From a virus: 64,000 bases of DNA. Made by a program: the position numbers and the translations under genes. Shown piece by piece: positions 13,755 to 44,188 of the stretch. Under the pieces are notes generated by a model. The model was not told the origin of the DNA. It saw nothing but the letters and a program-made list of their open reading frames with translations, and did not search any database. Location of the stretch: IMG/VR virus record IMGVR_UViG_3300006810_000037, positions 5,775 to 69,774 of that record. One strand, 5' to 3'. The first letter of the stretch is position 1. Every line of letters begins with the position of its first letter.

Positions 13755-14577
13755 CTCCTGGTCTCCAATTTCTTGAAGGGGTGGACCATCTCTTCATCCC
13801 AGAGGGATGCCGGACGCTGTATCTGGTATTACGTTACAAGATCGTGTAACACCCAGTGGCCTCTGCACGTTCCAATCACGGGCTTGATTGGCTTCGCTCA
13901 GGATTACCCTCGTCTTTACGTTAGGGCTTCCCTGAATTCATCCGGTTTTCACTTAACGATTGCTCGCTAAGGTGACAACGCTTGAGAAGTTCAGGTGAGG
14001 TAAAATTTGGAAACTTGTTCATAAACATCATGAATCCAAAATTAGTCTCAGGATTTGGTAATCTCTACTTAACTGAATCCGGAAGAGCTTTTGAAAAACA
14101 CTTGGACGATAATGACCAGGAGTATTTTGAAGAACTTCCTATACAACACACTAGTAAGTATGATCGTGTCTCAATCCTTGTTGACAGTAAAAGAAAAAGA
14201 TTTAATTTACACGTCTTAATGGCTGTTGCTTTCTTGGATTTAGATTTGCGTTCACATGGAACACACAACTTTTCTTTGCAAGTTAATCATATAGATAACA
14301 ACAAAAGAAATAACAATCTAAATAATTTAGAGATTGCTACTAAACAAGAAAACCTTATAAGAAGCTGGACTGAAAACAATCAAATTAACAATGGTTTTGC
14401 AAGTAAAGGAAAGGCGAAAACATCACTCAGGAAATTTTCTAAAGAAGATGTGAAACAAATTAAATCTTTAAAAGAAGCAGGTCTTTCATACAGAAAGATT
14501 GCTGAAAAATTTAATTGTAATCACGGTGCTATTTACCAAATGCTGAAAGGTAATACCTACCAGGATCTGAACTAGCT
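13755..14577 (-). mobile_element. Group I self-splicing intron (823 nt) in the major capsid gene
   Basis: 5' exon ends in U and intron ends in G; P AAUUCAGGGAAG, Q AAUCCUGAGC, R GUGCAGAGGCCA, S AAGAGAUGGUCC; P3 CCGGA/UCCGG; IGS CGUUGUCA (13980-13973) pairs with both exons. Confidence 0.92.
14030..14575 (+). CDS. Intron-encoded HNH homing endonuclease with C-terminal HTH (antisense to the intron)
   Basis: LHVLMAVAF...VNHIDNNKRNNNLNNLE...EN HNH motif; GLSYRKIAEKFNCNHGAI HTH; TAAAAT at 14001-14006 upstream. Confidence 0.88.
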   Translation: MNPKLVSGFGNLYLTESGRAFEKHLDDNDQEYFEELPIQHTSKYDRVSILVDSKRKRFNLHVLMAVAFLDLDLRSHGTHNFSLQVNHIDNNKRNNNLNNLEIATKQENLIRSWTENNQINNGFASKGKAKTSLRKFSKEDVKQIKSLKEAGLSYRKIAEKFNCNHGAIYQMLKGNTYQDLN

Positions 14578-30289: not shown

Positions 30290-30570
30290 CTATTTTTTTA
30301 AAAAAAATAATTTTTTTTGTTTTTTAAGGTTAAAATTTGGTTAAAAAAGCTATATATATAGGCCGATTTGGGAAAATATTCTGCTGATCATTCTAGCGCG
30401 GGTCTCATTTTTCCCAAACCGAGAGGAAAAAAAATAAACAGGGGATGTGCCTGTGGATAACCCTGGGGATAACGGGGCCAGGCCTGGGAAATGTGGGGAT
30501 ATCCTGACAATTCCTGGGGAGAAAGATGGGGAAATATTAAGATTTCCTGTAGATATCCTGTGGAAAACCA
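30290..30570. other. AT-rich tract plus cluster of DnaA-box-like sites
   Basis: Poly-A/T runs at 30290-30360; TGTGGATAA 30452 (perfect), TGGGGATAA 30464, TGTGGAAAA 30559 and four weaker co-oriented copies. Confidence 0.6.
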
Positions 30571-30699
30571 CCGTTCTAGCTGTGAAAAACGCTGAGATCC
30601 ATTGCGGCGCAAGGAGTTTCCTCAATTCCACAGGTGAGCCGGGCATGTATGTGGATGGTGTATGATCGCGCACGCATTCCTATGTGTTCGACGGAATGG

Positions 30700-30728
30700 T
30701 TGCAGCACTGCCGCTGATGGCCTATAGT
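30700..30728 (+). promoter_or_regulatory. Putative sigma70-type early promoter
   Basis: TTGCAG-N17-TATAGT. Confidence 0.5.
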
Positions 30729-30767
30729 GGATTCATCGGGGACGCCACGGGCTCTCCGGTCAATCGG

Positions 30768-30795
30768 TTGACAGGTCCGCCGGATCTGCTACGAT
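30768..30795 (+). promoter_or_regulatory. Putative sigma70-type early promoter
   Basis: TTGACA-N16-TACGAT with extended -10 TG. Confidence 0.6.
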
Positions 30796-30841
30796 TGAAC
30801 CAAGCGAGGCGGGTGACAGCCGCAGCGCTACAGTTATCCGA

Positions 30842-30875
30842 GCAGGTCACCACCCTGCGCACCTAGACAATTGAA
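30842..30875 (+). promoter_or_regulatory. boxB-like hairpin plus boxA-like antitermination element
   Basis: GCAGG-TCACCAC-CCTGC followed directly by GCACCTAGACAATTGAA, similar to cyanobacterial rrn boxA. Confidence 0.5.
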
Positions 30876-31033
30876 GAAGAGTACCGGCACCGATTGGTTG
30901 CAGGTGGGCGAACTAGAGCCAGCCCCAGTCCGGCCCGGATGCGCGTGACACCGATGGTGTGTGTCACAGCCAGGGGGAGACATCCTCTGTAGCTGAAACG
31001 TAGGCTTTTTGTAAGCTGATGGTAGGCAAATTG

Positions 31034-31120
31034 TGCGGAGTGGCAGCCGCAGCGGACTCATAGATTCACCGTTCCCGGTCCCAAGGGGGGACTGTGCAGG
31101 TTCGAGTCCTGCCGGGATCC
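31034..31120 (+). ncRNA. tRNA-like structured RNA (not a canonical tRNA)
   Basis: D-arm-like GCGG-AGTGGCAG-CCGC; T-arm GCAGG-TTCGAGT-CCTGC; acceptor-like GTTCCCG/CGGGATC lying 3' of the D-like arm. Confidence 0.65.
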
Positions 31121-31164
31121 TTGGCAGCAGTAATGTTGTCAATTGTCCTATCACCACTAAGACA

Positions 31165-31338
31165 ATGATTTCTTTTTCTAAAGTTGAAGCTGATTTTCTT
31201 TCTCATTGCATGGAAATTTTCGCTGATACTTTCAAGGAAGGTGAAGAGATGAACTTCACTGATTATGATCGTGAGAATATTCTTATGAATCATCTTCAGA
31301 TTGAAGAACTTTATCGGAAACTTCAAACATTAAGCTGA
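31165..31338 (+). CDS. Small early protein (57 aa)
   Basis: ATG follows the shared ATCACCACTAAGA leader; 3' part of tracked ORF 31033-31338. Confidence 0.7.
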   Translation: MISFSKVEADFLSHCMEIFADTFKEGEEMNFTDYDRENILMNHLQIEELYRKLQTLS

Positions 31339-31428
31339 TCCGTTCAAGCGGGTCCGGAGTGTGCAATCCCTCCGGCAGTTATTGTCAGCAGCAATGCTGA
31401 CATTCGTTCTATCACCACTAAGAACATG
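31333..31428 (+). repeat. Intergenic structured repeat, copy 1 (mini-tRNA-like fold, hairpin, leader)
   Basis: Near identical to 31775-31870; AGCTG/CAGTT, CCG-TTCAAG-CGG, CCGGAG-T-G-TGCAATC-C-CTCCGG, TCAGCA-GCAA-TGCTGA. Confidence 0.9.
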
Positions 31429-31761
31429 CCTGTTAACAATCCAGACTTACTCTGTGCTTACGGAAGTATGACTGAGCGTCAACAGAAACGCTATGACAAC
31501 TTGAAAGTTGAGCATAGATATGCACGTTTCTGTGCAGACAATGATCGTAACGGAAACCCTCGGAGAATCTGGGTGGTTTCTAACGACAAAGGTGAGGCAT
31601 TATTTGCCTGGGATGAAGGTTACCATGGCCGCAATTGTGTGCCGGGTAGTTTACGTCGATCCTTCGATGATCATTCTGTAAGGGTAGATTGTAACGTCGC
31701 GACTTATCAAATGTTGAAGAAGTTACCCTCCCCTGAATTCGTACCTAATTTCAATTGGTAA
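31426..31761 (+). CDS. Early hypothetical protein
   Basis: NDRNGNPRR...DEGY motif seen in phage early proteins; shared leader. Confidence 0.75.
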   Translation: MPVNNPDLLCAYGSMTERQQKRYDNLKVEHRYARFCADNDRNGNPRRIWVVSNDKGEALFAWDEGYHGRNCVPGSLRRSFDDHSVRVDCNVATYQMLKKLPSPEFVPNFNW

Positions 31762-31774
31762 TTACCATATTGAA

Positions 31775-31870
31775 AGCTGTTCCGTTCAAGCGGGTCCGGA
31801 GTGTGCAATCCCTCCGGCAGTTATTGTCAGCAGCAATGCTGGCAATTGTTCTATCACCACTAAGAACATG
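31775..31870 (+). repeat. Intergenic structured repeat, copy 2
   Basis: Near identical to 31333-31428. Confidence 0.9.
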
Positions 31871-32089
31871 GAGAAACCACTGATCACATCTGAGAGAATC
31901 CCTCACGATTGTGGACACTATCACGAGAGAATTTATAACCACGATACAATCGTGGCCTATATCTTGAGTGAACCTGGAAAGGGTACATATTGCTTCGTTA
32001 ACAACGAAGATCAAATGTGCTGGAAAGGTTATGCAACCGTGGCTGATGCCAAGGAAGCATTCTTCAAACTCCGTCCTGATCTTAATTAA
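31868..32089 (+). CDS. Early hypothetical protein
   Basis: Start defined by the shared leader. Confidence 0.7.
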   Translation: MEKPLITSERIPHDCGHYHERIYNHDTIVAYILSEPGKGTYCFVNNEDQMCWKGYATVADAKEAFFKLRPDLN

Positions 32090-32090
32090 T

Positions 32091-32153
32091 GACGAAACTA
32101 TCCCTCCGGGGATAGTCTCCGGACTTGGCATGTCCGGACTGATGAGTCTGCCA
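32091..32153 (+). ncRNA. Type II hammerhead ribozyme, copy 1 (predicted cleavage after C32117)
   Basis: GAC-GAAAC-TATCCC(TCCG)GGGATA-GTC-TCCGGAC(TTGGCAT)GTCCGGA-CTGATGA-GTC-TGCCA; intact core; loop-1 TGGCA pairs with 3' TGCCA. Confidence 0.93.
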
Positions 32154-32176
32154 CTTGTTCAATCACCACTAAGAAC

Positions 32177-32938
32177 ATGTCAAGTAACGGTTACGTTCTA
32201 CAGCGCGGACTTTCACCTATCAATGGTGAACCTTTCGTTGTAATCATGACAATGAAGTCTTCAAATAAGAAGACCAGTAATATGATCCAGGTCTGGATAT
32301 TGCATGAGGATGTTAATCCTGTTGATGCAATTAAATCAGGCTTAGATGAAACTATATGTGGATATTGTTCACATCGTTTTCGTCTACATCCTGATGGCAA
32401 GTTACATAGGACTTGTTATGTGAATCCAGGTCAAGCACCATTATCTATCTGGCGTGCATACAAGAGGGGTTTATACCCAGGCATTAACAGCTGCTTTAAT
32501 GTTGTCCGGTTATTATCGGGCCGTCATATTAGATGGGGTGCTTATGGGGATCCTTCTGTGATCGACCCTTCTATTGTGAAATCTTTCAATGAGAAAGCTG
32601 AGGGCCACACTGGATACACTCATCAATGGAAGCATTCATTTGCTGATGCTTTCATAGGTGTGTTCCAGGCATCATGTGATTCTTTCGGTGATTATCTTGA
32701 GGCCTCTTCTAAGGGGTGGAAATGTTTCTCAGTTGTTAACAAGGGCGATACCAATGTGGCTAACATCGGCAAGCTATGTCCGACTGAGGTTCCAAACTCA
32801 CAAGCTAAGTGTCAATCATGCACTCTATGTGATGGTTCAAAGACTGATATTTTCATCCCTGCTCATGGCACGGGTGGCAAATTAGTCTCCTATGTAAGCC
32901 AAGATGTGCACGAGCTTTCTGAGCTGCTGTTCAATTGA
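32177..32938 (+). CDS. Cys-rich putative Fe-S/radical-SAM-like phage protein
   Basis: SSNKKT...CGYCSH...CYV...IRWGAYGDP...TGYTHQW...ASCDS...CP...CQSCTLC...AHG. Confidence 0.7.
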   Translation: MSSNGYVLQRGLSPINGEPFVVIMTMKSSNKKTSNMIQVWILHEDVNPVDAIKSGLDETICGYCSHRFRLHPDGKLHRTCYVNPGQAPLSIWRAYKRGLYPGINSCFNVVRLLSGRHIRWGAYGDPSVIDPSIVKSFNEKAEGHTGYTHQWKHSFADAFIGVFQASCDSFGDYLEASSKGWKCFSVVNKGDTNVANIGKLCPTEVPNSQAKCQSCTLCDGSKTDIFIPAHGTGGKLVSYVSQDVHELSELLFN

Positions 32939-32942
32939 TCTC

Positions 32943-33005
32943 GACGAAACTATCCCTCCGGGGATAGTCCTAGGGTTTAGCATCCCCTAGCTGATGAGTC
33001 TGCCA
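32943..33005 (+). ncRNA. Type II hammerhead ribozyme, copy 2 (predicted cleavage after C32969)
   Basis: Same core and stem III; different but fully paired stem I CTAGGG(TTTAGCATC)CCCTAG; CTGATGA-GTC-TGCCA. Confidence 0.9.
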
Positions 33006-33025
33006 CTATTCTTTTCAACAATCCA

Positions 33026-33397
33026 ATGCACAATCACAACATCCTTCGGGCACTTAATGTGCTGTCAATTCTGATCCAAACTAGTTACGAACTAGGCTAT
33101 GAAACCGGTAAGTTTTACCGGCAACACTTACATCATCACGTTGTTTCTGGCATCGCTTTATTAATCACAGTTTGTGTACACTTATATGCAAACCGTAAAC
33201 GATACAGAAATAAGATAGAGGCTTTGTTTGTATATCGATACGAAACAACCATTAACCTTGCGCCAGCTGTTCATCCTCTGTATGCTTCGATGGAATCATT
33301 AATGATTCAAACGAGCAGAGACCTTCGTGCGATCACTGGCATCAAACGTAAGGTCTCTAAGGTAAGGATGACAGATCAGTACCTTTCCATGGTCTGA
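33026..33397 (+). CDS. Early hypothetical membrane protein
   Basis: YELGYETG...hydrophobic helix...APAVHPL pattern. Confidence 0.65.
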   Translation: MHNHNILRALNVLSILIQTSYELGYETGKFYRQHLHHHVVSGIALLITVCVHLYANRKRYRNKIEALFVYRYETTINLAPAVHPLYASMESLMIQTSRDLRAITGIKRKVSKVRMTDQYLSMV

Positions 33398-33404
33398 GCA
33401 CTGT

Positions 33405-33503
33405 GATCTGGGCTGCATCTTGGCGTGACTGTGTGGTGCTTTCGCGCCATGATTCTCTACAGCGTAAGACCCAGGTTTGGGGGGTTGCGCCTACAACTCC
33501 CCT
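33405..33503 (+). ncRNA. Intergenic long hairpin with TAAGA bulge plus second hairpin
   Basis: GATCTGGG/CCCAGGTT closing stem; TGGTGC-TTTC-GCGCCA apex; GGGGGTTG...CAACTCCC downstream. Confidence 0.5.
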
Positions 33504-33563
33504 AGCATTCAATCAACAAGGCTTCATCACCACTGAAGTCTCACACATACATCAACTAAACCC

Positions 33564-33836
33564 ATGATCAATTCATTTCGCCTCGGTAAGAACAAATTTC
33601 TCACGCTTGACACGTATTGTCGCCAAGACTATCCCACAAACACAATGCACTTTTTCCAATCTTTCTTGTCAATTATTGCTGGTATTGGTATTGGAACATT
33701 ATTAACAGTCGCAGCCCAAAAAGAGATTAATAAACATGTTGAAACTACCTGTTATGGACCAGCGGATCAGATTGCATCTGTCCGTTCTTTCATGGGTACA
33801 GTCAAGTATTGCGTTAAGGGGGGTATCAAGCAATGA
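33564..33836 (+). CDS. Hypothetical membrane protein
   Basis: One hydrophobic segment; start uncertain. Confidence 0.55.
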   Translation: MINSFRLGKNKFLTLDTYCRQDYPTNTMHFFQSFLSIIAGIGIGTLLTVAAQKEINKHVETTCYGPADQIASVRSFMGTVKYCVKGGIKQ

Positions 33837-34102
33837 AAAGAATCGAACGTATCAAAGCTTTGATCGATGAAGCTGGCTCTAGCTATGTTTCTGTCACCTT
33901 TATCAAAAAGGATGGCAGCGAACGTCAGATGACATTCAATCCAAAGGATGTGAATGACATCAAGGGTACTGGAGACACCAGTAATGTTGACGCGAACATC
34001 TTTCGTGTTCGTGATAACAAGATACAACAATGGCGTTCATTTGATGCACGTCGTGTGATCAAAATTAAATCCAAAGGAACAATCACTGAATTCAATGACT
34101 AA
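33833..34102 (+). CDS. WYL-like/SH3 beta-barrel protein
   Basis: VTFIKKDGSERQM...WRSF motif. Confidence 0.7.
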   Translation: MKRIERIKALIDEAGSSYVSVTFIKKDGSERQMTFNPKDVNDIKGTGDTSNVDANIFRVRDNKIQQWRSFDARRVIKIKSKGTITEFND

Positions 34103-35425: not shown

Positions 35426-35621
35426 TGCGCACGAGCTGAGTGGAGCTACTGAAAGGTAGCAAGTAACAGGGGAGATGCAATAAGGAATCAAGAGGGGCGA
35501 GATGATACCACGCGAGCAAGGCGAAGCTGTATTTGAACTTAATGCACTTGAGTGAATCCCTGTGGTGCCAATGCATCTCAGGGATTTTTGCTGTAACAAT
35601 CGAGAAAATCAGTGCACAAAT

Positions 35622-35810
35622 ACCGATTACACCCTTGTTTTATTTAGCTATAGAGAAAACGTACACAAGAGGGTCTTATGTACAGAAGCTGAGTCTCATC
35701 TGATCCAATCAAGACAATCTCATTAATCTTTTTTGAGACTAATGATCTGTACATTAACTCCCCTAGTGTACGTTTTTCTATAGGGGGATTTGCGAAGGGG
35801 TGTAATCGGT
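35622..35810. repeat. Large imperfect inverted repeat made of two bipartite GTGTACGTTT-N24-GTGTAATCGGT motifs
   Basis: Minus-strand copy 35622-35666 and plus-strand copy 35766-35810; further copies at 36597 and 56333. Confidence 0.85.
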
Positions 35811-35933
35811 TTTTTTGTGTCATTTAATTTCCGATTATGAGTGACCGCAAGGGATCTCAGCTAAGCTGTAATCGGAAAACATGCACACCCAACACTATTG
35901 AGAACCCATCTCAGTAACAACACCACAAGACCT

Positions 35934-36474: not shown

Positions 36475-36596
36475 TCATTTACATATGACAAAAGCAACCA
36501 CTGATCGCACCACAACAACACAAAGCATGCACAAAACTCGATTACACCTACCCCGATCACACTTATCCACAACCAAAACATACACTTCTACCCCTT

Positions 36597-36641
36597 GTGT
36601 ACGTTTCTTTAGTACCAAGATAATTTATAGGTGTAATCGGT
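36597..36641 (+). repeat. Bipartite motif, copy 3
   Basis: GTGTACGTTT-N24-GTGTAATCGGT; perfect DnaA box TTATCCACA at 36563-36571 just upstream. Confidence 0.8.
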
Positions 36642-36878
36642 TTTTATACACACAAACTTGTACAATCCCCCTGTACATTCAACCCACCCCGACTTGTACA
36701 ATTACCCGTACATTCAACCCACCCCGATGAACATGGACCCAAACGAATTGTTAAGAGAACCTGAAGATTGCATGGATGAATTCATCTACGTGCTAGGTGA
36801 GGACGGTTACTTAGAGCCGGTGTCCATTGCAAGCAAAGAACAAACTGAAGATCAATCAGACGACATCTACATTGACTT

Positions 36879-38404: not shown

Positions 38405-38427
38405 AAAGCTAGGGGAAGTGTGAAATG

Positions 38428-38454
38428 ATCCCTGCTTCGGCAGGGATTTTTTTT
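38428..38454 (+). terminator. Intrinsic terminator
   Basis: ATCCCTGC-TTCG-GCAGGGAT followed by a T run. Confidence 0.88.
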
Positions 38455-38572
38455 GTGTAGCTTGATGTGTGCAAATGTTAAATGAATATAAAGAATCAGT
38501 TTGGATGTCATGATCTCCTGAACATTGCGAGACACTTAATCGAATGCAGACTACGTTTGCTTTGTCCGAATC

Positions 38573-38632
38573 AGCTAGGCATCCGGTAGGTAACGCCGCC
38601 TCCAGGAGACACCGAAAGTGTAAGTCCTAGTT
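38573..38632 (+). ncRNA. Structured motif with TAAGT bulge
   Basis: AGCTAGG-CAT...GTG-TAAGT-CCTAGTT; related to 39263-39298. Confidence 0.5.
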
Positions 38633-38860: not shown

Positions 38861-39232
38861 ATGAGCATCCCCAATTTCAAAAACCAAAACGACTACCAAG
38901 AGTTTCACAACATCTTTGATGATCAATGGCAATGTAAGCTAGCACTGCTGAATCGTGTGAAGGATGATTTGTTTCCTGACCCTGAATATTCTTGGGATTA
39001 TCTTCAACCGAAGACTTTGGAAGTGATCAATGACATGGTGCAATATATTTTGTATGATGTAAATCGTCAGTTCAAAGAGACACACCAGGACTACAAGACT
39101 GAAGAGGATGACATCTTCATTCCTTATCGTTCTTTCAAAGAGAATGTAACAGAAGAATTGAAAGAAGCATTGGAGAGTCAGAACGATGTTCTCTTATGCT
39201 CAGAGGACGCACAAAAATATTATGATGAATAA
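38861..39232 (+). CDS. Hypothetical protein
   Basis: ORF track; ATGA overlap with a small upstream ORF. Confidence 0.65.
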   Translation: MSIPNFKNQNDYQEFHNIFDDQWQCKLALLNRVKDDLFPDPEYSWDYLQPKTLEVINDMVQYILYDVNRQFKETHQDYKTEEDDIFIPYRSFKENVTEELKEALESQNDVLLCSEDAQKYYDE

Positions 39233-39301
39233 TAAATAACTTTGGGGTCTTCGGACCCCCTTCTAGGCATCCACTCTCCGACGTGATGTAAGTCCTAGCC
39301 A

Positions 39302-39390
39302 GGGAGCGTGCTGAAATTGGTAGACAGAACGGACTTAAAATCCGCCGAGCTGTAAAGCTCATGTGGGTTCAAGTCCCGCCGCTCCTACCA
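39302..39390 (+). tRNA. trnL: tRNA-Leu(UAA) with encoded CCA
   Basis: Acceptor GGGAGCG/CGCTCCT; D-loop AATTGGTAG; anticodon loop CT-TAA-AA; long variable arm GAGC/GCTC; T-arm GTGGG-TTCAAGT-CCCGC. Confidence 0.95.
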
Positions 39391-39408
39391 AACAAACCAA
39401 ACCAAACA

Positions 39409-39621
39409 ATGATGGAACTCACTGAATCAAAACGGGTAACGAAGTCAGTCACTCTAGATGGTCTTTGCCATCTTGCATCACGACCTGACTATATCGAAGC
39501 TACTGAATGGACAAACGGAGAAGGTCTTGACTTCCATGTAGAAAGTCGAGGCGGGAAAGAAAAATTCTCTCTTACTTATGGAGAGGTAAAAGCAATCACT
39601 CTCCTTGGAACTCTTTTCTGA
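39409..39621 (+). CDS. Hypothetical protein
   Basis: DYIEATEWTNGEGLD...FSLTYGE conserved phage pattern. Confidence 0.7.
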   Translation: MMELTESKRVTKSVTLDGLCHLASRPDYIEATEWTNGEGLDFHVESRGGKEKFSLTYGEVKAITLLGTLF

Positions 39622-39643
39622 TCCCTTACATCAATTCAATCCA

Positions 39644-39943
39644 ATGCCAAGAAAGAAACAGCCTTACAGTCGTTTGCAACCTGGTCAAAGAGTTGTGAAA
39701 AAATCAAACATGACTTTGATAGGCAATCAAATTAGCATGCAGCAAAGAAAGCTACCCAATATATTGCACGGAGAAATTATAGAAATAATTACTATTAAAA
39801 ATAAGAGAGGTTCATACCATCCTTATTGTAAAGTTAGATGGGATGAGAACGGAAGAGTAGACTTGGTGTTAGCCAGTCGCTTACATCTAGAAAAAGATAA
39901 AGATTTAATGATCGCATCTCAGGTTGAATCTATCGGTGCATGA
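39644..39943 (+). CDS. SH3/KOW-like hypothetical protein
   Basis: LQPGQRVV...GEII...KVRWD pattern. Confidence 0.55.
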   Translation: MPRKKQPYSRLQPGQRVVKKSNMTLIGNQISMQQRKLPNILHGEIIEIITIKNKRGSYHPYCKVRWDENGRVDLVLASRLHLEKDKDLMIASQVESIGA

Positions 39944-40179
39944 AAGATACTATCAAGCTTAAGCTTGCCCAATGCCCTAACTGTAAACAAAAGTCTTACC
40001 GAATTACATGCACTGATAAAACTTCCACTGCTACTCGCAGACGTTATGTTTGTGACCTTTGTAAGTTTAAAGAATCCAAGTATGAATTGGATGAAGAAAC
40101 TTATGAGAAGTGGAAACGCTATGAGTATGTACTAGGAAAGATTAAAGAACTAGTAACCTACCTTAAATTCAAATACTGA
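39940..40179 (+). CDS. NrdR-like zinc-ribbon protein 1
   Basis: CPNC...TRRRYVCDLC...YE. Confidence 0.65.
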   Translation: MKDTIKLKLAQCPNCKQKSYRITCTDKTSTATRRRYVCDLCKFKESKYELDEETYEKWKRYEYVLGKIKELVTYLKFKY

Positions 40180-40460
40180 TGCCCCAAAGAAAATTCTATC
40201 CCGCTCCAGCTTGCCCCGATTGTAAAAGAGAAGGTCCGGGATCTTCTTACGTTAAGGACACAGTTTATACAGGGGATGGTTTCATTCTCCGCTTCAGAAA
40301 CTGTGCTTGGTGTGAAGGAAAATGGTGGACTAAACAAAGTCCAGAGATGAATATTGATCCTTCAAAGGAACGTGTTGTTCATCCCCCTAAGTATAAAAAC
40401 ATGCCACGCGATATGAAACGCACCTTTTATTTAAAGCCATTATCTATTTCTAACAAATGA
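40179..40460 (+). CDS. NrdR-like zinc-ribbon protein 2
   Basis: CPDC...VKDT...ILRFRNCAWC...WWT. Confidence 0.6.
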   Translation: MPQRKFYPAPACPDCKREGPGSSYVKDTVYTGDGFILRFRNCAWCEGKWWTKQSPEMNIDPSKERVVHPPKYKNMPRDMKRTFYLKPLSISNK

Positions 40461-40777
40461 AATGTCCTGTTTGCAATGCTAAAAAAACAAAAGTCACCTG
40501 CACACAACATAAAGATTCTTTCACTGCGCGTTACTGCAGGTGCTTAACCTGTGATGTTAAATTTAAAACAGTTGAGAGGTATGCATTACGTGAAGAGTGC
40601 AGAACAAACAGCTACGGTTTCATGCGTGGCTCTTCTCATATAGATGAAGACGCTATAAAAAATATTCGTAGGCTAAAAAGAAATGGATATAGCATCAAAC
40701 GTATATCAGAAAAAGTTTCGATTAAACCTGAAGTTGTAGATAAGATTGTAAGGTATCAATCATTTACAAATGTCTAA
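40457..40777 (+). CDS. NrdR-like zinc-ribbon protein 3 with C-terminal HTH
   Basis: MKCPVC...TKV...RYCRCLTCDVKFKTVE; GYSIKRISEK HTH. Confidence 0.7.
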   Translation: MKCPVCNAKKTKVTCTQHKDSFTARYCRCLTCDVKFKTVERYALREECRTNSYGFMRGSSHIDEDAIKNIRRLKRNGYSIKRISEKVSIKPEVVDKIVRYQSFTNV

Positions 40778-40964
40778 AAAGAAAAGGCTTCAGAAATTAA
40801 TTCAGAAGCCTCTTCGGTTTCATCATCAAGACATTCATGAAGAGCTTGATGCAATCAAGCAGCAGCTCGCTCTTCAGAATGAGCTGTTGGCTTGTATCGG
40901 TCTAGATCTCGCTCAGACTTATCCAGTTGTGAGCGAAAGTTTAGAAGATAGCGAAGCTCAATAG
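40770..40964 (+). CDS. Hypothetical protein
   Basis: KPLRFHHQDIHEEL resembles a conserved cyanophage peptide. Confidence 0.6.
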   Translation: MSKKKRLQKLIQKPLRFHHQDIHEELDAIKQQLALQNELLACIGLDLAQTYPVVSESLEDSEAQ

Positions 40965-41084
40965 GAGAACGCTTGTAGCTGATTCCCCTGTAGCAAAGTG
41001 TTTCCATGGTCAGTTCATCGTCAAATCTCAGGCCCCGTTCCCTGCCTGAAGAAGTGCGCCGGTGTAAACCGGTGAACGTTCTCC
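40964..41084 (+). ncRNA. Candidate multi-stem ncRNA
   Basis: GGAGAACG/CGTTCTCC closing stem with three internal hairpins. Confidence 0.4.
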
Positions 41085-41150
41085 AATTATATCGGTGCTA
41101 AATCCAACAAACCTATTGCTTTATTTTTCATCAGGGCTAAATTTATTTCG

Positions 41151-41834
41151 TTGATCACCAACACAATGTCAGTTCTCAAGATCCAACCCAACTCAAATCG
41201 CTCCCCCGATGTGCGTACACCTGAACCATTGCAAGGAGACCACACAACTTGGGATGAATTCTTTGCACTCGTAAAGCCTAGGCTTCGTGCCAGGGCTGAT
41301 GGCTTTGAGAAAATATTTGAATACATCAAAGAACATTTGCTAGATGATCTCGTTATCGTGGAGACAGGTACATATCGTGAGGTGAATAACTATGAAGGCG
41401 ACGGTTGCTCTACTCTTCTCTTTGATGCTTTTATTAAGTATCACGCAGGGTTATTAGTGTCTATTGATATCGATCCCGCTGCTTGTGAGCTGGCTCGTAG
41501 AAGCACAGAGCGTGCTTATGTGACTCAAAGTGATAGCGTTGTTTATCTGAGTTCTTTTATTCATCCAATATCAGTTCTTTATTTAGATTCTTTTAATATT
41601 GATGATTGGAATCATGACCATGATTCTGCTGCTCATCATCTCAAAGAACTGTTCGTTGCAAAAGAACTATTGGAAGATGGCTCCTTAGTAATCGTAGACG
41701 ATAATATTAAAAGCCCTTATGATCAAAAGCTTATCGGCAAAGGTCGTTTGATTAGAGAGGTTCTTCATGACACTCTTGGTATGAAACTTCTTGTCGATGA
41801 TTATCAGCAGGCATTTATCTGGAGTAACTCATGA
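41151..41834 (+). CDS. Class I SAM-dependent methyltransferase
   Basis: IVETGT, SIDID, SDSV, LYLDS and IVDD motifs. Confidence 0.8.
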   Translation: MITNTMSVLKIQPNSNRSPDVRTPEPLQGDHTTWDEFFALVKPRLRARADGFEKIFEYIKEHLLDDLVIVETGTYREVNNYEGDGCSTLLFDAFIKYHAGLLVSIDIDPAACELARRSTERAYVTQSDSVVYLSSFIHPISVLYLDSFNIDDWNHDHDSAAHHLKELFVAKELLEDGSLVIVDDNIKSPYDQKLIGKGRLIREVLHDTLGMKLLVDDYQQAFIWSNS

Positions 41835-42061
41835 GCTACGTAATAGCTACAAACATAAGCGGCATCACTCATTGCATAAAGCCTGATCAAGATGCAGGAA
41901 AGTTTGTTCTCATTCCTATCAACAGTGCATCAGATGTAGCTCGTGCTTTTAATGCCCCACAACAAACCATTGCCCTTCAAATTTTAAACTGGCTAAAAGA
42001 AAATGATTCCATCCTTTCTTCGCACGACTTCGAAGTTTCCTCTGCCTCCAAGTTCGGATAA
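41831..42061 (+). CDS. Hypothetical protein
   Basis: ATGA overlap. Confidence 0.55.
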   Translation: MSYVIATNISGITHCIKPDQDAGKFVLIPINSASDVARAFNAPQQTIALQILNWLKENDSILSSHDFEVSSASKFG

Positions 42062-43868
42062 AGTAGTTCTTCTTTTTGACATAGAAACGAACGGATTTTA
42101 CAATGATGTTAACAAGATACATTGTATCGTTATTAAAGATGTCAACTCAGGACAGACTTTTAGTTACAGGCCTGACCGCATTAGCAACGCTCTTGTTCAT
42201 CTGGATTCAGCTGATGTTGTCATTGGTCACAATATAATTTTCTATGACATTCCTGTAATAGAAAAGCTGCATCCGGGTGCAATAGATTTCTCTACTAAAG
42301 AAGTAATTGACACCTTGGTCTGTGTGAGATTGCTGTGGCCTAAAGAAAAACTTTACGAAATAGATCAAGTTGATTTCAATCATGTTCCCTCCCGTCTTAT
42401 GGGCTCTGCTTCTCTGGAAGCCTGGGGCCACCGCTTCAAAGACTACAAAGGTGATTTCAAAAACTTTGGTACATTCACACAGGAAATGCTTGATTATTGT
42501 TTACAAGATGTCAGTGTCTCGTTCAAGTTATACAAACTGTTGTGTGATCAGCCCCGTAAATACGAACGAGCGCTGCGTCTGGAACATGACTTGGCTCGAT
42601 GTATTGAAAGACAGATTAGATCTGGCTTTGGATTTGATGTTGATGCGGCTAATGATTTGGTGGCTGAACTTGAAAAGCGAAAGGATGAATTAGAGGGCCA
42701 GCTTAGAGAGGCTTTCCCTTCAAAGGATGAGGGTGATTGGTTTACACCAAAGGTAAACAACAAGAACAAAGGTTACGTAACGGGAGTGATGGTATGGAGG
42801 CCAAACGTTATTGAGTTTAATCCTGGTAGCCGTCAGCAGATTTGCGAAAGGCTTAAAGAAAAATATGGGTGGGAACCTACTGCAAGAACAGAGAAAGGTA
42901 ACCCAATTCTTGATGACGAAGTATTAGAAAAACTTATATATCCTGAGGCAAAACTTCTCTCAGAATATATGCTCATCAAGAAAAGGCTGGGACAAATTAA
43001 GGAGGGTTCTAATGCATGGCTAAAGCTAGTTACAGATGATAATTTTATACATGGTGATCTCATTACCAATGGCTGCATCACTGGTAGAGCTAGCCATAAG
43101 TCTCCCAACATGGCACAAGTTCCGGCTGGGTACTCGCCCTTTGGAAAAGAATGTCGCTCCTTGTTCTTACCCCCTGATGGTTTTGATCTTATCGGCGTAG
43201 ATGCTAAGGCACTTGAACTGAGATGCTTGGCTGGTTACTTAGCTATCTATGATCAAGGTGAGTATGGAAGATTAGTTTGTGATGATGATATAGATATACA
43301 TAGTTTCAATCAAGAAAAGTTTGGTGTGGCGACAAGAGATATAAGTAAAAGACTTCTTTACGCAGTGTTGTATGGAGCTGGTTACTACAAAGCAGGTACA
43401 ATCGTTGACCCAAATGAAACAGACTCTGAAAAGATTAAGCAGCTTGGAAGAGAGGCAATCAATTCTTTCATGGCTGGTGTGCCAGCACTAGCTCTTTTAA
43501 AAAAATCTCTCAGCTCAAATTTAGAACGGCGTGGGTTTCTTCTTGGTCTTGACAAACGTCCTTTGTTCTGTAGATCTGAATTTAAATCTTTAAATGTTTT
43601 ACTGCAAGCAGCTGGTGCTGTTCTGATGAAGCAAGTTGTGATTAATATTCATCGTAATTTAAATTCGCAAGGATTGATTTATGGTATTGATTGGCAACAA
43701 CATGCCTTTGTTCATGATGAAGTACAGCTTTCATGTCGTCCTGGCGTGGCTGACAAGGTAAAAGAATTATCTTTAAAGTCTTTTATAGAATCAGGAAATG
43801 ATTTTAAATTTAGAGTTCCTATTGAAGGTGATGCGAAACTAGGATCATGTTGGTATGAGACTCACTAA
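42003..43868 (+). CDS. DNA polymerase family A (T7-like) with 3'-5' exonuclease
   Basis: FDIET and GHNIIFYD exonuclease motifs; DAKALELR motif A; KRLLYAVLYG motif B (Tyr762 type); VHDEVQ motif C. Confidence 0.95.
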   Translation: MIPSFLRTTSKFPLPPSSDKVVLLFDIETNGFYNDVNKIHCIVIKDVNSGQTFSYRPDRISNALVHLDSADVVIGHNIIFYDIPVIEKLHPGAIDFSTKEVIDTLVCVRLLWPKEKLYEIDQVDFNHVPSRLMGSASLEAWGHRFKDYKGDFKNFGTFTQEMLDYCLQDVSVSFKLYKLLCDQPRKYERALRLEHDLARCIERQIRSGFGFDVDAANDLVAELEKRKDELEGQLREAFPSKDEGDWFTPKVNNKNKGYVTGVMVWRPNVIEFNPGSRQQICERLKEKYGWEPTARTEKGNPILDDEVLEKLIYPEAKLLSEYMLIKKRLGQIKEGSNAWLKLVTDDNFIHGDLITNGCITGRASHKSPNMAQVPAGYSPFGKECRSLFLPPDGFDLIGVDAKALELRCLAGYLAIYDQGEYGRLVCDDDIDIHSFNQEKFGVATRDISKRLLYAVLYGAGYYKAGTIVDPNETDSEKIKQLGREAINSFMAGVPALALLKKSLSSNLERRGFLLGLDKRPLFCRSEFKSLNVLLQAAGAVLMKQVVINIHRNLNSQGLIYGIDWQQHAFVHDEVQLSCRPGVADKVKELSLKSFIESGNDFKFRVPIEGDAKLGSCWYETH

Positions 43869-44188
43869 TGTTTTCATTTATTCGCGAACCTTCTGAGGAA
43901 CCTGTTTTGGATCCAAACCACGACTTGATCTGTGACCTCATCTACTTGATGAAGCCCAGTCAATATAAAACTGCAATTGAATATTTAGTTGAACTTCTGG
44001 TGTCAGATATGGGTACAGAAATACTAGAAGGGTTAACTGGAAATAAAACTGGTGATGATGAAGCTCAACAAATGCTGTTAATCTTTTATGATGCAGAGGG
44101 TATTTACACCTGTCTGTCTGACTCTCTTAAACTATTGAGCAACGACAAAGTCTGCTCAGCTCTCAACAAACTTTTTTCACCGCAATGA
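43868..44188 (+). CDS. Hypothetical protein
   Basis: TAATG coupling to the polymerase gene. Confidence 0.6.
   Translation: MFSFIREPSEEPVLDPNHDLICDLIYLMKPSQYKTAIEYLVELLVSDMGTEILEGLTGNKTGDDEAQQMLLIFYDAEGIYTCLSDSLKLLSNDKVCSALNKLFSPQ

Follow-up and report, generated by a model that had tools for sequence, protein, structure and literature searches.

What is the role of the structured RNA modules that stand, one after another, ahead of the first small genes in the rightward arm of a phage genome? The window analysed here is a stretch of 64 kb (64,000 nucleotides (nt); IMG/VR record IMGVR_UViG_3300006810_000037) out of a 69,774-bp phage genome with overlapping ends. The nearest named phage is Synechococcus phage S-EIV1, whose large terminase is 77.6% identical, and a DNA similarity search of deposited phages gave no match. 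The structural genes, with terminase and a portal-like protein among them, occupy a leftward arm that begins at about 30,300, and the rightward arm starts with small open reading frames (ORFs) followed by DNA polymerase A, SSB and primase. The module array sits where this arm starts, and its genes are called early here from their position only. Six ORFs (AUGs at 31165, 31426, 31868, 32177, 33026 and 33564) each have a module ahead of them, beginning 1-14 nt past the preceding stop codon: a tRNA-like element (module A), two copies of a 96-nt repeat (module B), two type II hammerhead ribozymes and a long bulged hairpin (E-long). Every module named in an earlier sequence-only reading of this DNA is present where it had been placed (Table 1). 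As judged from alignments with related loci, each module is a conserved, covarying RNA structure, and we find it probable that these exchangeable modules are the points at which a long transcript is cut up into mRNAs of one gene each.

The evidence beyond chance is covariation among relatives and not folding energy, the z scores of single sequences being modest (-0.9 to -4.6). The relatives are 32 loci (216 kb), termed the W-clade, some of which are the same or near-identical contigs; counts refer to distinct sequences. An exact leader pattern led to L001, a viral contig, and a degenerate pattern to 28 metagenome contigs, and a protein search added L002, a relative with 92% identity. This protein search used an 89-residue ORF lying just past the array and gave 80 loci, L002 being the only close relative among them. 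When viral contigs were scanned with the E-long loop or with a loose leader pattern, most matches were due to chance, and L001, L002/L119 and L144 were the only true relatives. Locus L035 was discarded as unrelated, its leader match lying within coding sequence. An Rfam scan of 11 related loci at the gathering threshold gave one tRNA only. In the window itself the array contains three repeat families: a 47-nt repeat in four copies (31121, 31382, 31824 and 32133), which are 64-85% identical to the reference copy, one of 97 nt in two copies (31332 and 31774; 96% identical) and one of 65 nt in two copies (32091 and 32943; 83% identical).

The hammerheads are the modules in which cutting can be expected from the RNA alone. 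The sequence-only reading had recognized one at 32091 and another at 32943, and the three helices and the pseudoknot are confirmed by covariation around an invariant core. A pattern scan of the window and its relatives gave 46 distinct strings, 42 of which were aligned, leaving out two false positives in coding sequence (L169:1153 and L173:765) and two longer duplicates (L156:1657 and L162:2898). In this alignment 98.3% of 966 cells are paired and 12 of the 23 pairs show compensatory changes, as opposed to 28-49% paired when the control is slid by 1-3 columns; its share of paired cells, its count of compensatory pairs and its covariation score were each equalled in none of 500 shuffles. All 42 copies keep the core CUGAUGA...GAAA and the GUH triplet unchanged, the triplet being GUC in both window copies. 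Loops cap stems I and III and stem II is open, with paired shares of 99.7%, 100% and 93.7%, respectively, and compensatory changes in 10 of these 18 pairs. The pseudoknot between loop I and the 3' tail is paired in 96.7%, with two compensatory pairs (G-C to A-U and C-G to U-A). A homologous, aligned hammerhead of a relative (L160, 7226-7292) reaches 38.2 bits, over the Rfam cut-off of 37, and a stricter script counted 57 hammerheads across the 32 W-clade loci; it found none in 53 kb of S-EIV1 and none in 117 loci with the module B pattern (990 kb). Hammerheads with an intact core and pseudoknot are expected to cut by their own chemistry.

Module A resembles a tRNA reduced to its processing end. 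Its 7-bp acceptor stem has one U.U mismatch, which is repaired in two different ways in relatives, and is followed by two spacer bases, by a 4-bp D-like hairpin with a loop ending in GG and, past a short linker, by a T stem of 5 bp that carries a GUUCGANUC-type loop; the 3' strand of the acceptor comes last. Relatives have a GGUUCGANUCC-like T loop. An anticodon arm is missing, only 17 nt lying between the 5' strand of the acceptor and the T arm. Taken together, the acceptor stem, the T arm and the hairpin that follows module A (hairpin 3) are paired in 97.0% of 304 cells in 16 distinct copies, with compensatory changes in 9 of 19 pairs; the control slid by 1-3 columns gives 32-55%. The structural alignment yields coordinates identical to those that the sequence-only reading had given for a tRNA-like element (31071-31120). 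The stack of 7 + 5 bp with its loop UUCGAGU fits the acceptor/T-arm stack of tRNA-like processing signals. Neither ARAGORN nor the Rfam tRNA model (RF00005) makes a call at 31071-31120 or at module B. As a cloverleaf with an anticodon arm is absent from both, A and B are filed as tRNA-like and not as tRNAs.

Module B is a three-way junction with the consensus NCUG/CAGN for P1, an invariant CCG-UYAAAG-CGG for P2 and a 7-bp P3 whose loop, UGCAA(A/U)C, has a closing G-C pair; on the 3' side of the junction come NNAUU and then a hairpin. The 16-nt P2 pattern occurs in at least 117 viral contigs, and among the 126 matches listed, 74 distinct ones have the P3 loop; those that do not have it look like chance. 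An alignment of 73 distinct copies, including those of the W-clade, is paired in 98.5% of 1168 cells, with compensatory changes in 10 of 16 pairs, and P1 and P3 each occur with several pair types (slid control, 31-53% paired). P1 (5 bp) stacks directly on P3 (7 bp) to give 12 bp. This is the length of the acceptor-plus-T stack of tRNA, which carries a loop of T-loop consensus. The loop of B retains T-loop positions U54, C56, R57 and A58 and the closing pair G53-C61 (tRNA numbering). Because of its 12-bp stack and T-loop-like loop, B may be regarded as a second kind of tRNA mimic. The 96-nt repeat is indeed present twice (31333 and 31775), as previously noticed, but it is itself a tRNA mimic.

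Searches of Rfam 15 with the window copy of B and with E-long gave nothing beyond weak hits to unrelated families, the best at E = 1.3, and canonical copies of B and of the E-like hairpins described below from six loci had no Rfam match at E <= 0.5. The cultured phage S-EIV1 (L180, record positions 39000-44100, minus strand) has two B and two E-like copies between small genes of unannotated function, and its record carries no annotation for these copies. The idea that B mimics a host RNA was abandoned, as only 3 contigs of metagenome-assembled genomes (MAGs) among 185,579 species genomes have it, which makes B essentially viral. Translation of the first ORF ends inside B copy 1, its stop codon UGA (31336-31338) lying within the conserved CUGAUCCG; copy 2 does not have this UGA, and the second ORF stops 14 nt earlier.

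Whatever the module, its 3' end is of one kind, a hairpin plus a leader being common to all module types. The leader motif ATCACCACTAAGA has exactly four copies (31150, 31411, 31853 and 32162), and a variant with three mismatches lies at 33526; allowing up to three mismatches raises the count to 30, where shuffles give 19.15 +/- 4.17, and CACCACT[AG]A is found at only these five sites in the whole 69,774-bp genome. The sequence-only reading had described a shared leader without a Shine-Dalgarno sequence. Its four exact copies and the variant stand, but the leader proves to be a hairpin, with a covarying stem of 5 bp, an invariant loop (U/A)AUCACCACUAN and a last stem base that is the A of AUG. 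In relatives the stem takes the forms UGUUC/GAACA, UUGUC/GACAA, UAGUU/AACUA, CUUC/GAAG and CUCAC/GUGGG, among others. It is weak, -2.7 to -4.9 kcal/mol in most copies. A site for ribosome landing or an operator is our candidate role for the AUCACCAC loop. After hammerhead 2 there is a plain leader to AUG 33026, without the AUCACCAC hairpin.

Evidence that the modules are equivalent comes from the genes that follow them. The 76 ORFs associated with a leader fall into 20 families, 13 of which have at least two members, and in seven of these 13 the orthologues follow more than one module type, the rows being loci and not independent genomes; the other six are uniform. The mixed families are family 1 (hammerhead seven times, none twice), family 3 (hammerhead six times, B twice), family 5 (hammerhead four times, A twice, one cut), family 6 (B, hammerhead, none twice), family 7 (B in the window, hammerhead in L152, A in L161), family 11 (B in the window, A in L165) and family 12 (hammerhead, A); the rows of L161 and L163, which the script scored as none, are in fact A. 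Since orthologous genes follow different module types in these families, we take the equivalence of the slots to be real, and the proposal that different RNA devices occupy one slot is supported by relatives in which modules substitute for each other. Whole cassettes also come and go. In L002, with a downstream protein 92% identical to that of the window, a pair of different genes separates B from the hammerhead, and a contig of a relative, from an RNA library, joins 31390, in hairpin 3 of B, to 32154, in the leader of a 253-residue gene, with 14 other letters between. The junctions of such differences lie within the shared block of hairpin 3 and leader, which agrees with the earlier suggestion that the repeats could act as recombination points.

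The E-long hairpin, which had been noticed near 33405, in fact spans 33408-33474. The small family to which it belongs as the long form, here called E-like, has a 5-bp P1 (mostly CYRGG/CCYRG), a P2 directly on it that starts with C-G and has a one-base 5' bulge, and a conserved 5-nt 3' bulge UAAGU. A scan that required complementarity in P1 gave 83 distinct matches, against 24 in shuffled loci. In a scan on sequence only, all three outer P1 pairs were formed in 70 of 247 matches; the three positions just beyond them gave 6 of 243. P2, which was not selected for, is 91.3% paired, with three of its four pairs compensatory, in 24 aligned copies of 33-36 nt drawn from 47 of 27-41 nt among 70 in total. 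Neither E-long nor E-like matched Rfam 15. The apical loop of E-long is invariant, and its GUGGUG is the exact complement of the CACCAC present in the loops of all leader hairpins; a stretch containing CACCAC lies within about 90 nt after every E-long copy. A loop-loop contact between the two, in cis or in trans, could form, and covariation is uninformative about it, both loops being invariant. E-like copies lie 20-50 nt ahead of ORFs, and a gap of 2-4 nt separates them from a downstream tRNA-Leu(UAA) in the window and in L261, L185, L193 and L241. In the window this tRNA has an encoded CCA and stands between two ORFs of the same strand, and as it sits 18 nt before the next AUG (39409), a genuine tRNA appears in the same kind of slot. 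Processing or protein binding are candidate roles for the E-like hairpins. A promoter was rejected in view of the covariation of the helices and the variable spacing, and an integron attC site was rejected, core sites being absent and no integrase seen; an N4-type hairpin promoter was also set aside, with no ORF for a giant virion RNA polymerase in the window. A strong terminator (38427-38455) lies about 120 nt upstream of the E-like hairpin at 38575.

Table 1. Features of the module array and its surroundings (positions are those of the window; z, folding z score).
Feature	Position	Strand	Description
Candidate early promoter	30768..30795	+	TTGACA, 16 nt, TACGAT; TG just ahead; score 10/12
Module A, tRNA-like	31071..31120	+	Covariation in 16 distinct relatives; acceptor 31071-31077 with 31113-31119; T arm 31096-31112; discriminator 31120
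Hairpin 3 (GNRA-capped) after A	31121..31142	+	100% paired in alignment, 2 compensatory pairs
Leader hairpin 1	31143..31167	+	Stem UUGUC/GACAA, AUCACCAC in loop; stem ends on the A of AUG 31165; with hairpin 3, -13.2 kcal/mol, z = -2.9
Module B copy 1	31333..31380	+	Three-way junction; minimum-energy fold has the same junction, z = -2.1; P1 31333-31337 with 31376-31380; P2 31339-31352; P3 31354-31375, T-loop-like loop
Hairpin 3 + leader hairpin 2	31383..31428	+	31383-31402 and 31406-31425, then AUG 31426; -15.4 kcal/mol, z = -3.9
Module B copy 2	31775..31822	+	96% identical to copy 1; z = -1.9
Hairpin 3 + leader hairpin 3	31823..31870	+	Hairpin 3 at 31823-31846; then AUG 31868
Type II hammerhead 1	32091..32153	+	Rfam Hammerhead_II RF02276, 35.4 bits, E = 1.1e-4 (match 32090-32156); stem II 32091-32093 with 32146-32148; stem I 32118-32138; pseudoknot tail 32149-32153; predicted cut C32117/U32118
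Leader hairpin 4	32156..32179	+	Stem UGUUC/GAACA; then AUG 32177
Type II hammerhead 2	32943..33005	+	Invariant core, all helices; minimum-energy fold is the hammerhead fold; predicted cut C32969/C32970
E-long bulged hairpin	33408..33474	+	P1 CUGGG/CCCAG; P2 33421-33449 with conserved loop CUGUGUGGUGCUUUC; 3' internal strand ending GUAAGA; P1 and P2 covary between window, L001 and L154
G/C hairpin + leader-type hairpin	33479..33541	+	33479-33502 and 33519-33541 (loop AUCACCAC); AUG 33564 22 nt on; -23.7 kcal/mol, z = -4.6; 0/200 shuffles fold as well
Short E-like hairpin	38575..38630	+	In 5' leader, 47 nt before AUG 38677
Short E-like hairpin + tRNA-Leu(UAA)	39263..39390	+	E-like 39263-39298, fold shows 5-nt UAAGU bulge; 3-nt gap; tRNA 39302-39390

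How would such an array work? According to the mechanism that we favor, one conserved promoter (30768-30795) would give rise to one transcript covering the six small genes at the start of the arm, and the RNA module in each intergenic gap would define a cut, the module types being functionally equivalent. The candidate promoter is the sole sigma-70-like site on the plus strand between 29600 and 34113, and its hexamers and spacing are identical in L001, L163 and L144, as compared by eye. The type II hammerheads would cut themselves after C32117 and C32969, and the copies of A and B would mimic the acceptor/T-arm minihelix with the elbow of a tRNA and would probably be cut by enzymes with which the host processes its tRNAs, with RNase P acting on the 5' edge and the 3' edge left to RNase Z, or to RNase E cutting in the NNAUU spacer. 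A Pfam scan of 30 window proteins revealed no RNA polymerase, RNase or RNA ligase domain, so that host enzymes are the likely actors. Each downstream mRNA would then start with a stable hairpin, which is stem I plus the pseudoknot for the hammerheads and the GNRA-capped hairpin 3 for A and B, and in four of the six slots a weak hairpin with the AUCACCAC loop, ending on the A of AUG, would follow a few bases on. Indeed, stem I starts at the hammerhead cut, and hairpin 3 starts 1 nt past the discriminator of A and 1-3 nt past P1 of B. Hairpins at the 5' end and 5'-OH ends protect bacterial mRNAs. The products would be single-gene mRNAs capped by hairpins, with a stability and translation independent of their neighbors. 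The 3' half common to the modules would in addition provide homology for the gain, loss and swapping of cassettes. We infer the cutting from the chemistry of the hammerheads, the tRNA mimicry, the single conserved promoter upstream and the hairpin-capped predicted products; co-transcription, every cleavage, the enzymes involved and the stabilizing effect are likewise inferred.

The divergent arms are separated by a non-coding region of about 750 nt (30300-31070) that is kept in relatives, and in L144 and L163 it includes an extra hairpin with the AUCACCAC loop. Positions 30300-30861 are covered by a contig of a relative, from an RNA library, with the top depth seen (169).

Several points weigh against a cutting role or against the way it is supported. 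The RNA evidence consists of assembled contigs of low depth from four RNA libraries out of 11 listed runs, and one of these, a 750-nt contig of a relative (X5 record 23; 58 other letters) corresponding to 32858-33607, spans the cut of hammerhead 2; therefore uncut RNA or contaminating DNA exists. Hammerhead 1, with its 35.4 bits, is under the RF02276 gathering cut-off of 37, and hammerhead 2 is absent from the Rfam list at E <= 10 and has one A.C mismatch in its pseudoknot, also present in L156 and L162. The 3' product of the hammerhead folds at z = -0.98, E-long at z = -1.7 and module A at z = -0.93, the tRNA-like fold of A appearing in the centroid only and not in the minimum-energy fold. 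Moreover, the earlier view of a freely exchanged tRNA-like element has to be restricted: orthologues do follow A or other modules, but A is the first module past the divergent non-coding region in every locus that holds it, and its equivalence with the internal modules thus rests on gain and loss of cassettes and not on substitution in place. As to B, the invariance of P2 and of the P3 loop is partly built in, P2 having been the query and the loop the filter, which does not apply to the covariation of P1 and P3, and its strict conservation could mean something other than recognition by RNase P or RNase Z. A loose terminator pattern also picks out hairpin 3 in both copies of B. Finally, among the loci behind the ORF families, L144 and L170 are the same contig in two collections, and others are near-identical.

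A rather unlikely alternative is that the modules govern each gene's expression without cutting: they might insulate by their structure, bind proteins or be operators of translation, for instance with the help of a phage RNA-binding protein or by pairing with the E-long loop. The invariant AUCACCAC loop adjoins the AUG in a weak hairpin, and GUGGUG of E-long is complementary to CACCAC, although the invariance of both loops places this pairing beyond a covariation test. The ORF of 89 residues at 33833-34102 has a weak match to the Sm-like WYL_2 (Pfam 24 bits against a cut-off of 26.7), and the contig that bridges hammerhead 2 would also fit. However, hammerheads with an intact core and an intact pseudoknot are cutters by chemistry, and the exchangeability of three unrelated folds would go unexplained if each bound a different partner.

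It is also unlikely, slightly more so, that B, the E-like hairpins or both are new self-cleaving ribozymes, in which case every internal slot would be cut autocatalytically, with no need for an enzyme of the host. New ribozyme classes have earlier been found beside known ribozymes in similar contexts. B replaces hammerheads ahead of orthologous genes, and both B and E-like are highly conserved, widespread and not in Rfam. Nevertheless, the conserved bases of B lie in two loops, as an elbow-like pair, and not in the junction, whose strands have 0-2 nt; its 12-bp stack and T-loop-like loop suit tRNA mimicry, and the smallest E-like copy has 27 nt. We hold just as little expectation for a wider version, in which B would be a new ribozyme class interchangeable with hammerheads and E-like maybe another, the S-EIV1 lineage would own a toolkit of at least three catalytic or enzyme-recruiting cutters, and the AUCACCAC loops would be coordinated in trans by GUGGUG of E-long.

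That the modules act mainly as DNA, as portable blocks of homology or junctions of mobile cassettes with folds that are relics of carrier elements, seems improbable to us. Cassette content does vary among close relatives with junctions in the shared hairpin and leader, one contig joins 31390 to 32154, and the two B copies are 96% identical. On the other hand, compensatory changes in every helix over dozens of copies indicate selection on the RNA fold, and a Pfam scan of 30 proteins revealed neither integrase nor recombinase domains. Such a role is moreover compatible with cutting at the modules and not opposed to it.

Very little speaks for modules that are, or carry, independent promoters or terminators and so define separate transcription units. 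The terminator-like pattern in hairpin 3 of the B copies and the short, fairly fixed distances of E-like before ORFs (2-4 nt before tRNA-Leu) would suit this, but there is no sigma-70-like site on the plus strand inside the array, the tails of hairpin 3 are not U-runs, promoters do not need covarying helices, and the conserved halves of E-like are spaced by about 10 to 50 nt. Least credible of all are RNase III sites of the T7 kind. The position between early operon genes is analogous, and the likeness to T7 drawn in the sequence-only reading holds for function only, but RNase III requires about two turns of duplex and the longest helices here have 8-10 bp, with no stem long enough for the enzyme and no irregular duplex of ~20 bp.

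Other features of the window deserve mention. The ORF just past the array (33833-34102) is conserved and has relatives in many phages (113 loci confirmed by tblastn), and in some of these (L051, L053 and L066) tandem type II hammerheads lie a few kb upstream; its product is a candidate RNA-binding partner. Further on, two non-coding stretches (35430-35900 and 36480-36730) contain inverted repeats with arms of 43 nt and 20 nt and the repeated GGTGTAATCGGTTTTT, and two direct repeats of ~35 nt stand directly ahead of AUG 36728; these stretches may be an origin or a regulatory region. Amid the structural genes there is a group I intron (13762-13994, minus strand; Rfam 87 bits), and the terminase match to S-EIV1 is likewise split in two pieces. 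A glutamine-II riboswitch aptamer (41027-41081, minus strand; 47 bits) has its neighboring genes on the plus strand.

Parts of this design have precedents. In T7, RNase III sites process the early polycistronic transcript between cistrons and leave hairpins at the mRNA ends; fold, enzyme and chemistry differ in the window, and the stems are shorter. Acceptor/T-arm mimics that recruit tRNA-processing enzymes are found in C4 of phages P1 and P7 and CI of P4, which are phage RNAs processed by RNase P, and in the 3' signal of the mascRNA type in MALAT1. Each of these concerns one small RNA or one 3' end, whereas here a repeated module would punctuate an operon. Synthetic insulators are built from ribozyme-plus-hairpin parts of the RiboJ type and from guide arrays spaced by tRNAs; as in RiboJ, a cutter is followed immediately by a hairpin that would form the new 5' end and so free the expression of each gene from its context, but in this case the arrangement is natural and evolved in a phage lineage.

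Closer still are the hammerheads of prophages, which are described as clustered, as flanking single genes and as cleaving in vitro within transcripts of ~2 kb (Perreault et al. 2011, PMC3088659). A type II hammerhead with a pseudoknot between loop I and the 3' tail is already reported there, and the window copies share its capped stems I and III, short open stem II and pseudoknot, as well as the location between small phage genes of varying identity and the proposed role of turning a transcript into gene-length mRNAs. In contrast to the arrays of that account, the window hammerheads share their slot with tRNA mimics and have a common leader hairpin downstream. In plant mitochondria, t-elements are proposed to mark mRNA ends for RNase P and RNase Z (Forner et al. 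2007, PMC1920247). Like these and organellar tRNA punctuation as presented there, A and B are non-decoding tRNA-like structures at mRNA ends; unlike t-elements, they belong to a bacterial phage, lack an anticodon arm, follow two fixed designs and occur in alternation with self-cleaving ribozymes. A catalogue from IMG/VR viruses includes 10,006 unnamed covarying motifs, some of them tRNA-like and some upstream of genes, and its text on these motifs gives no function or sharing of slots (PMC10690425). In the portions of the literature consulted there is no description of tRNA mimics and ribozymes that share one slot, nor of B or E-like elements, and the motif list of that catalogue may include them. 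Hammerhead arrays of prophages are thus already known, and it is for their mix with tRNA mimics and for the two new motifs that the searches made reached no published account.

B and E-like are two candidate new RNA families, widespread, uncatalogued in Rfam and with clear consensus structures. The order of cutter, 5' hairpin and start-codon hairpin would make the array a natural counterpart of synthetic insulator parts, and the shared module ends offer a possible concrete mechanism for the high turnover of small early phage genes. If the proposed cutting is true, tRNA punctuation would extend from organelles to phages, and the clustering of ribozymes in phage early regions would be explained. 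The phage would then make independent mRNAs from one early transcript by means of exchangeable parts that either cut themselves or borrow the enzymes of the host.

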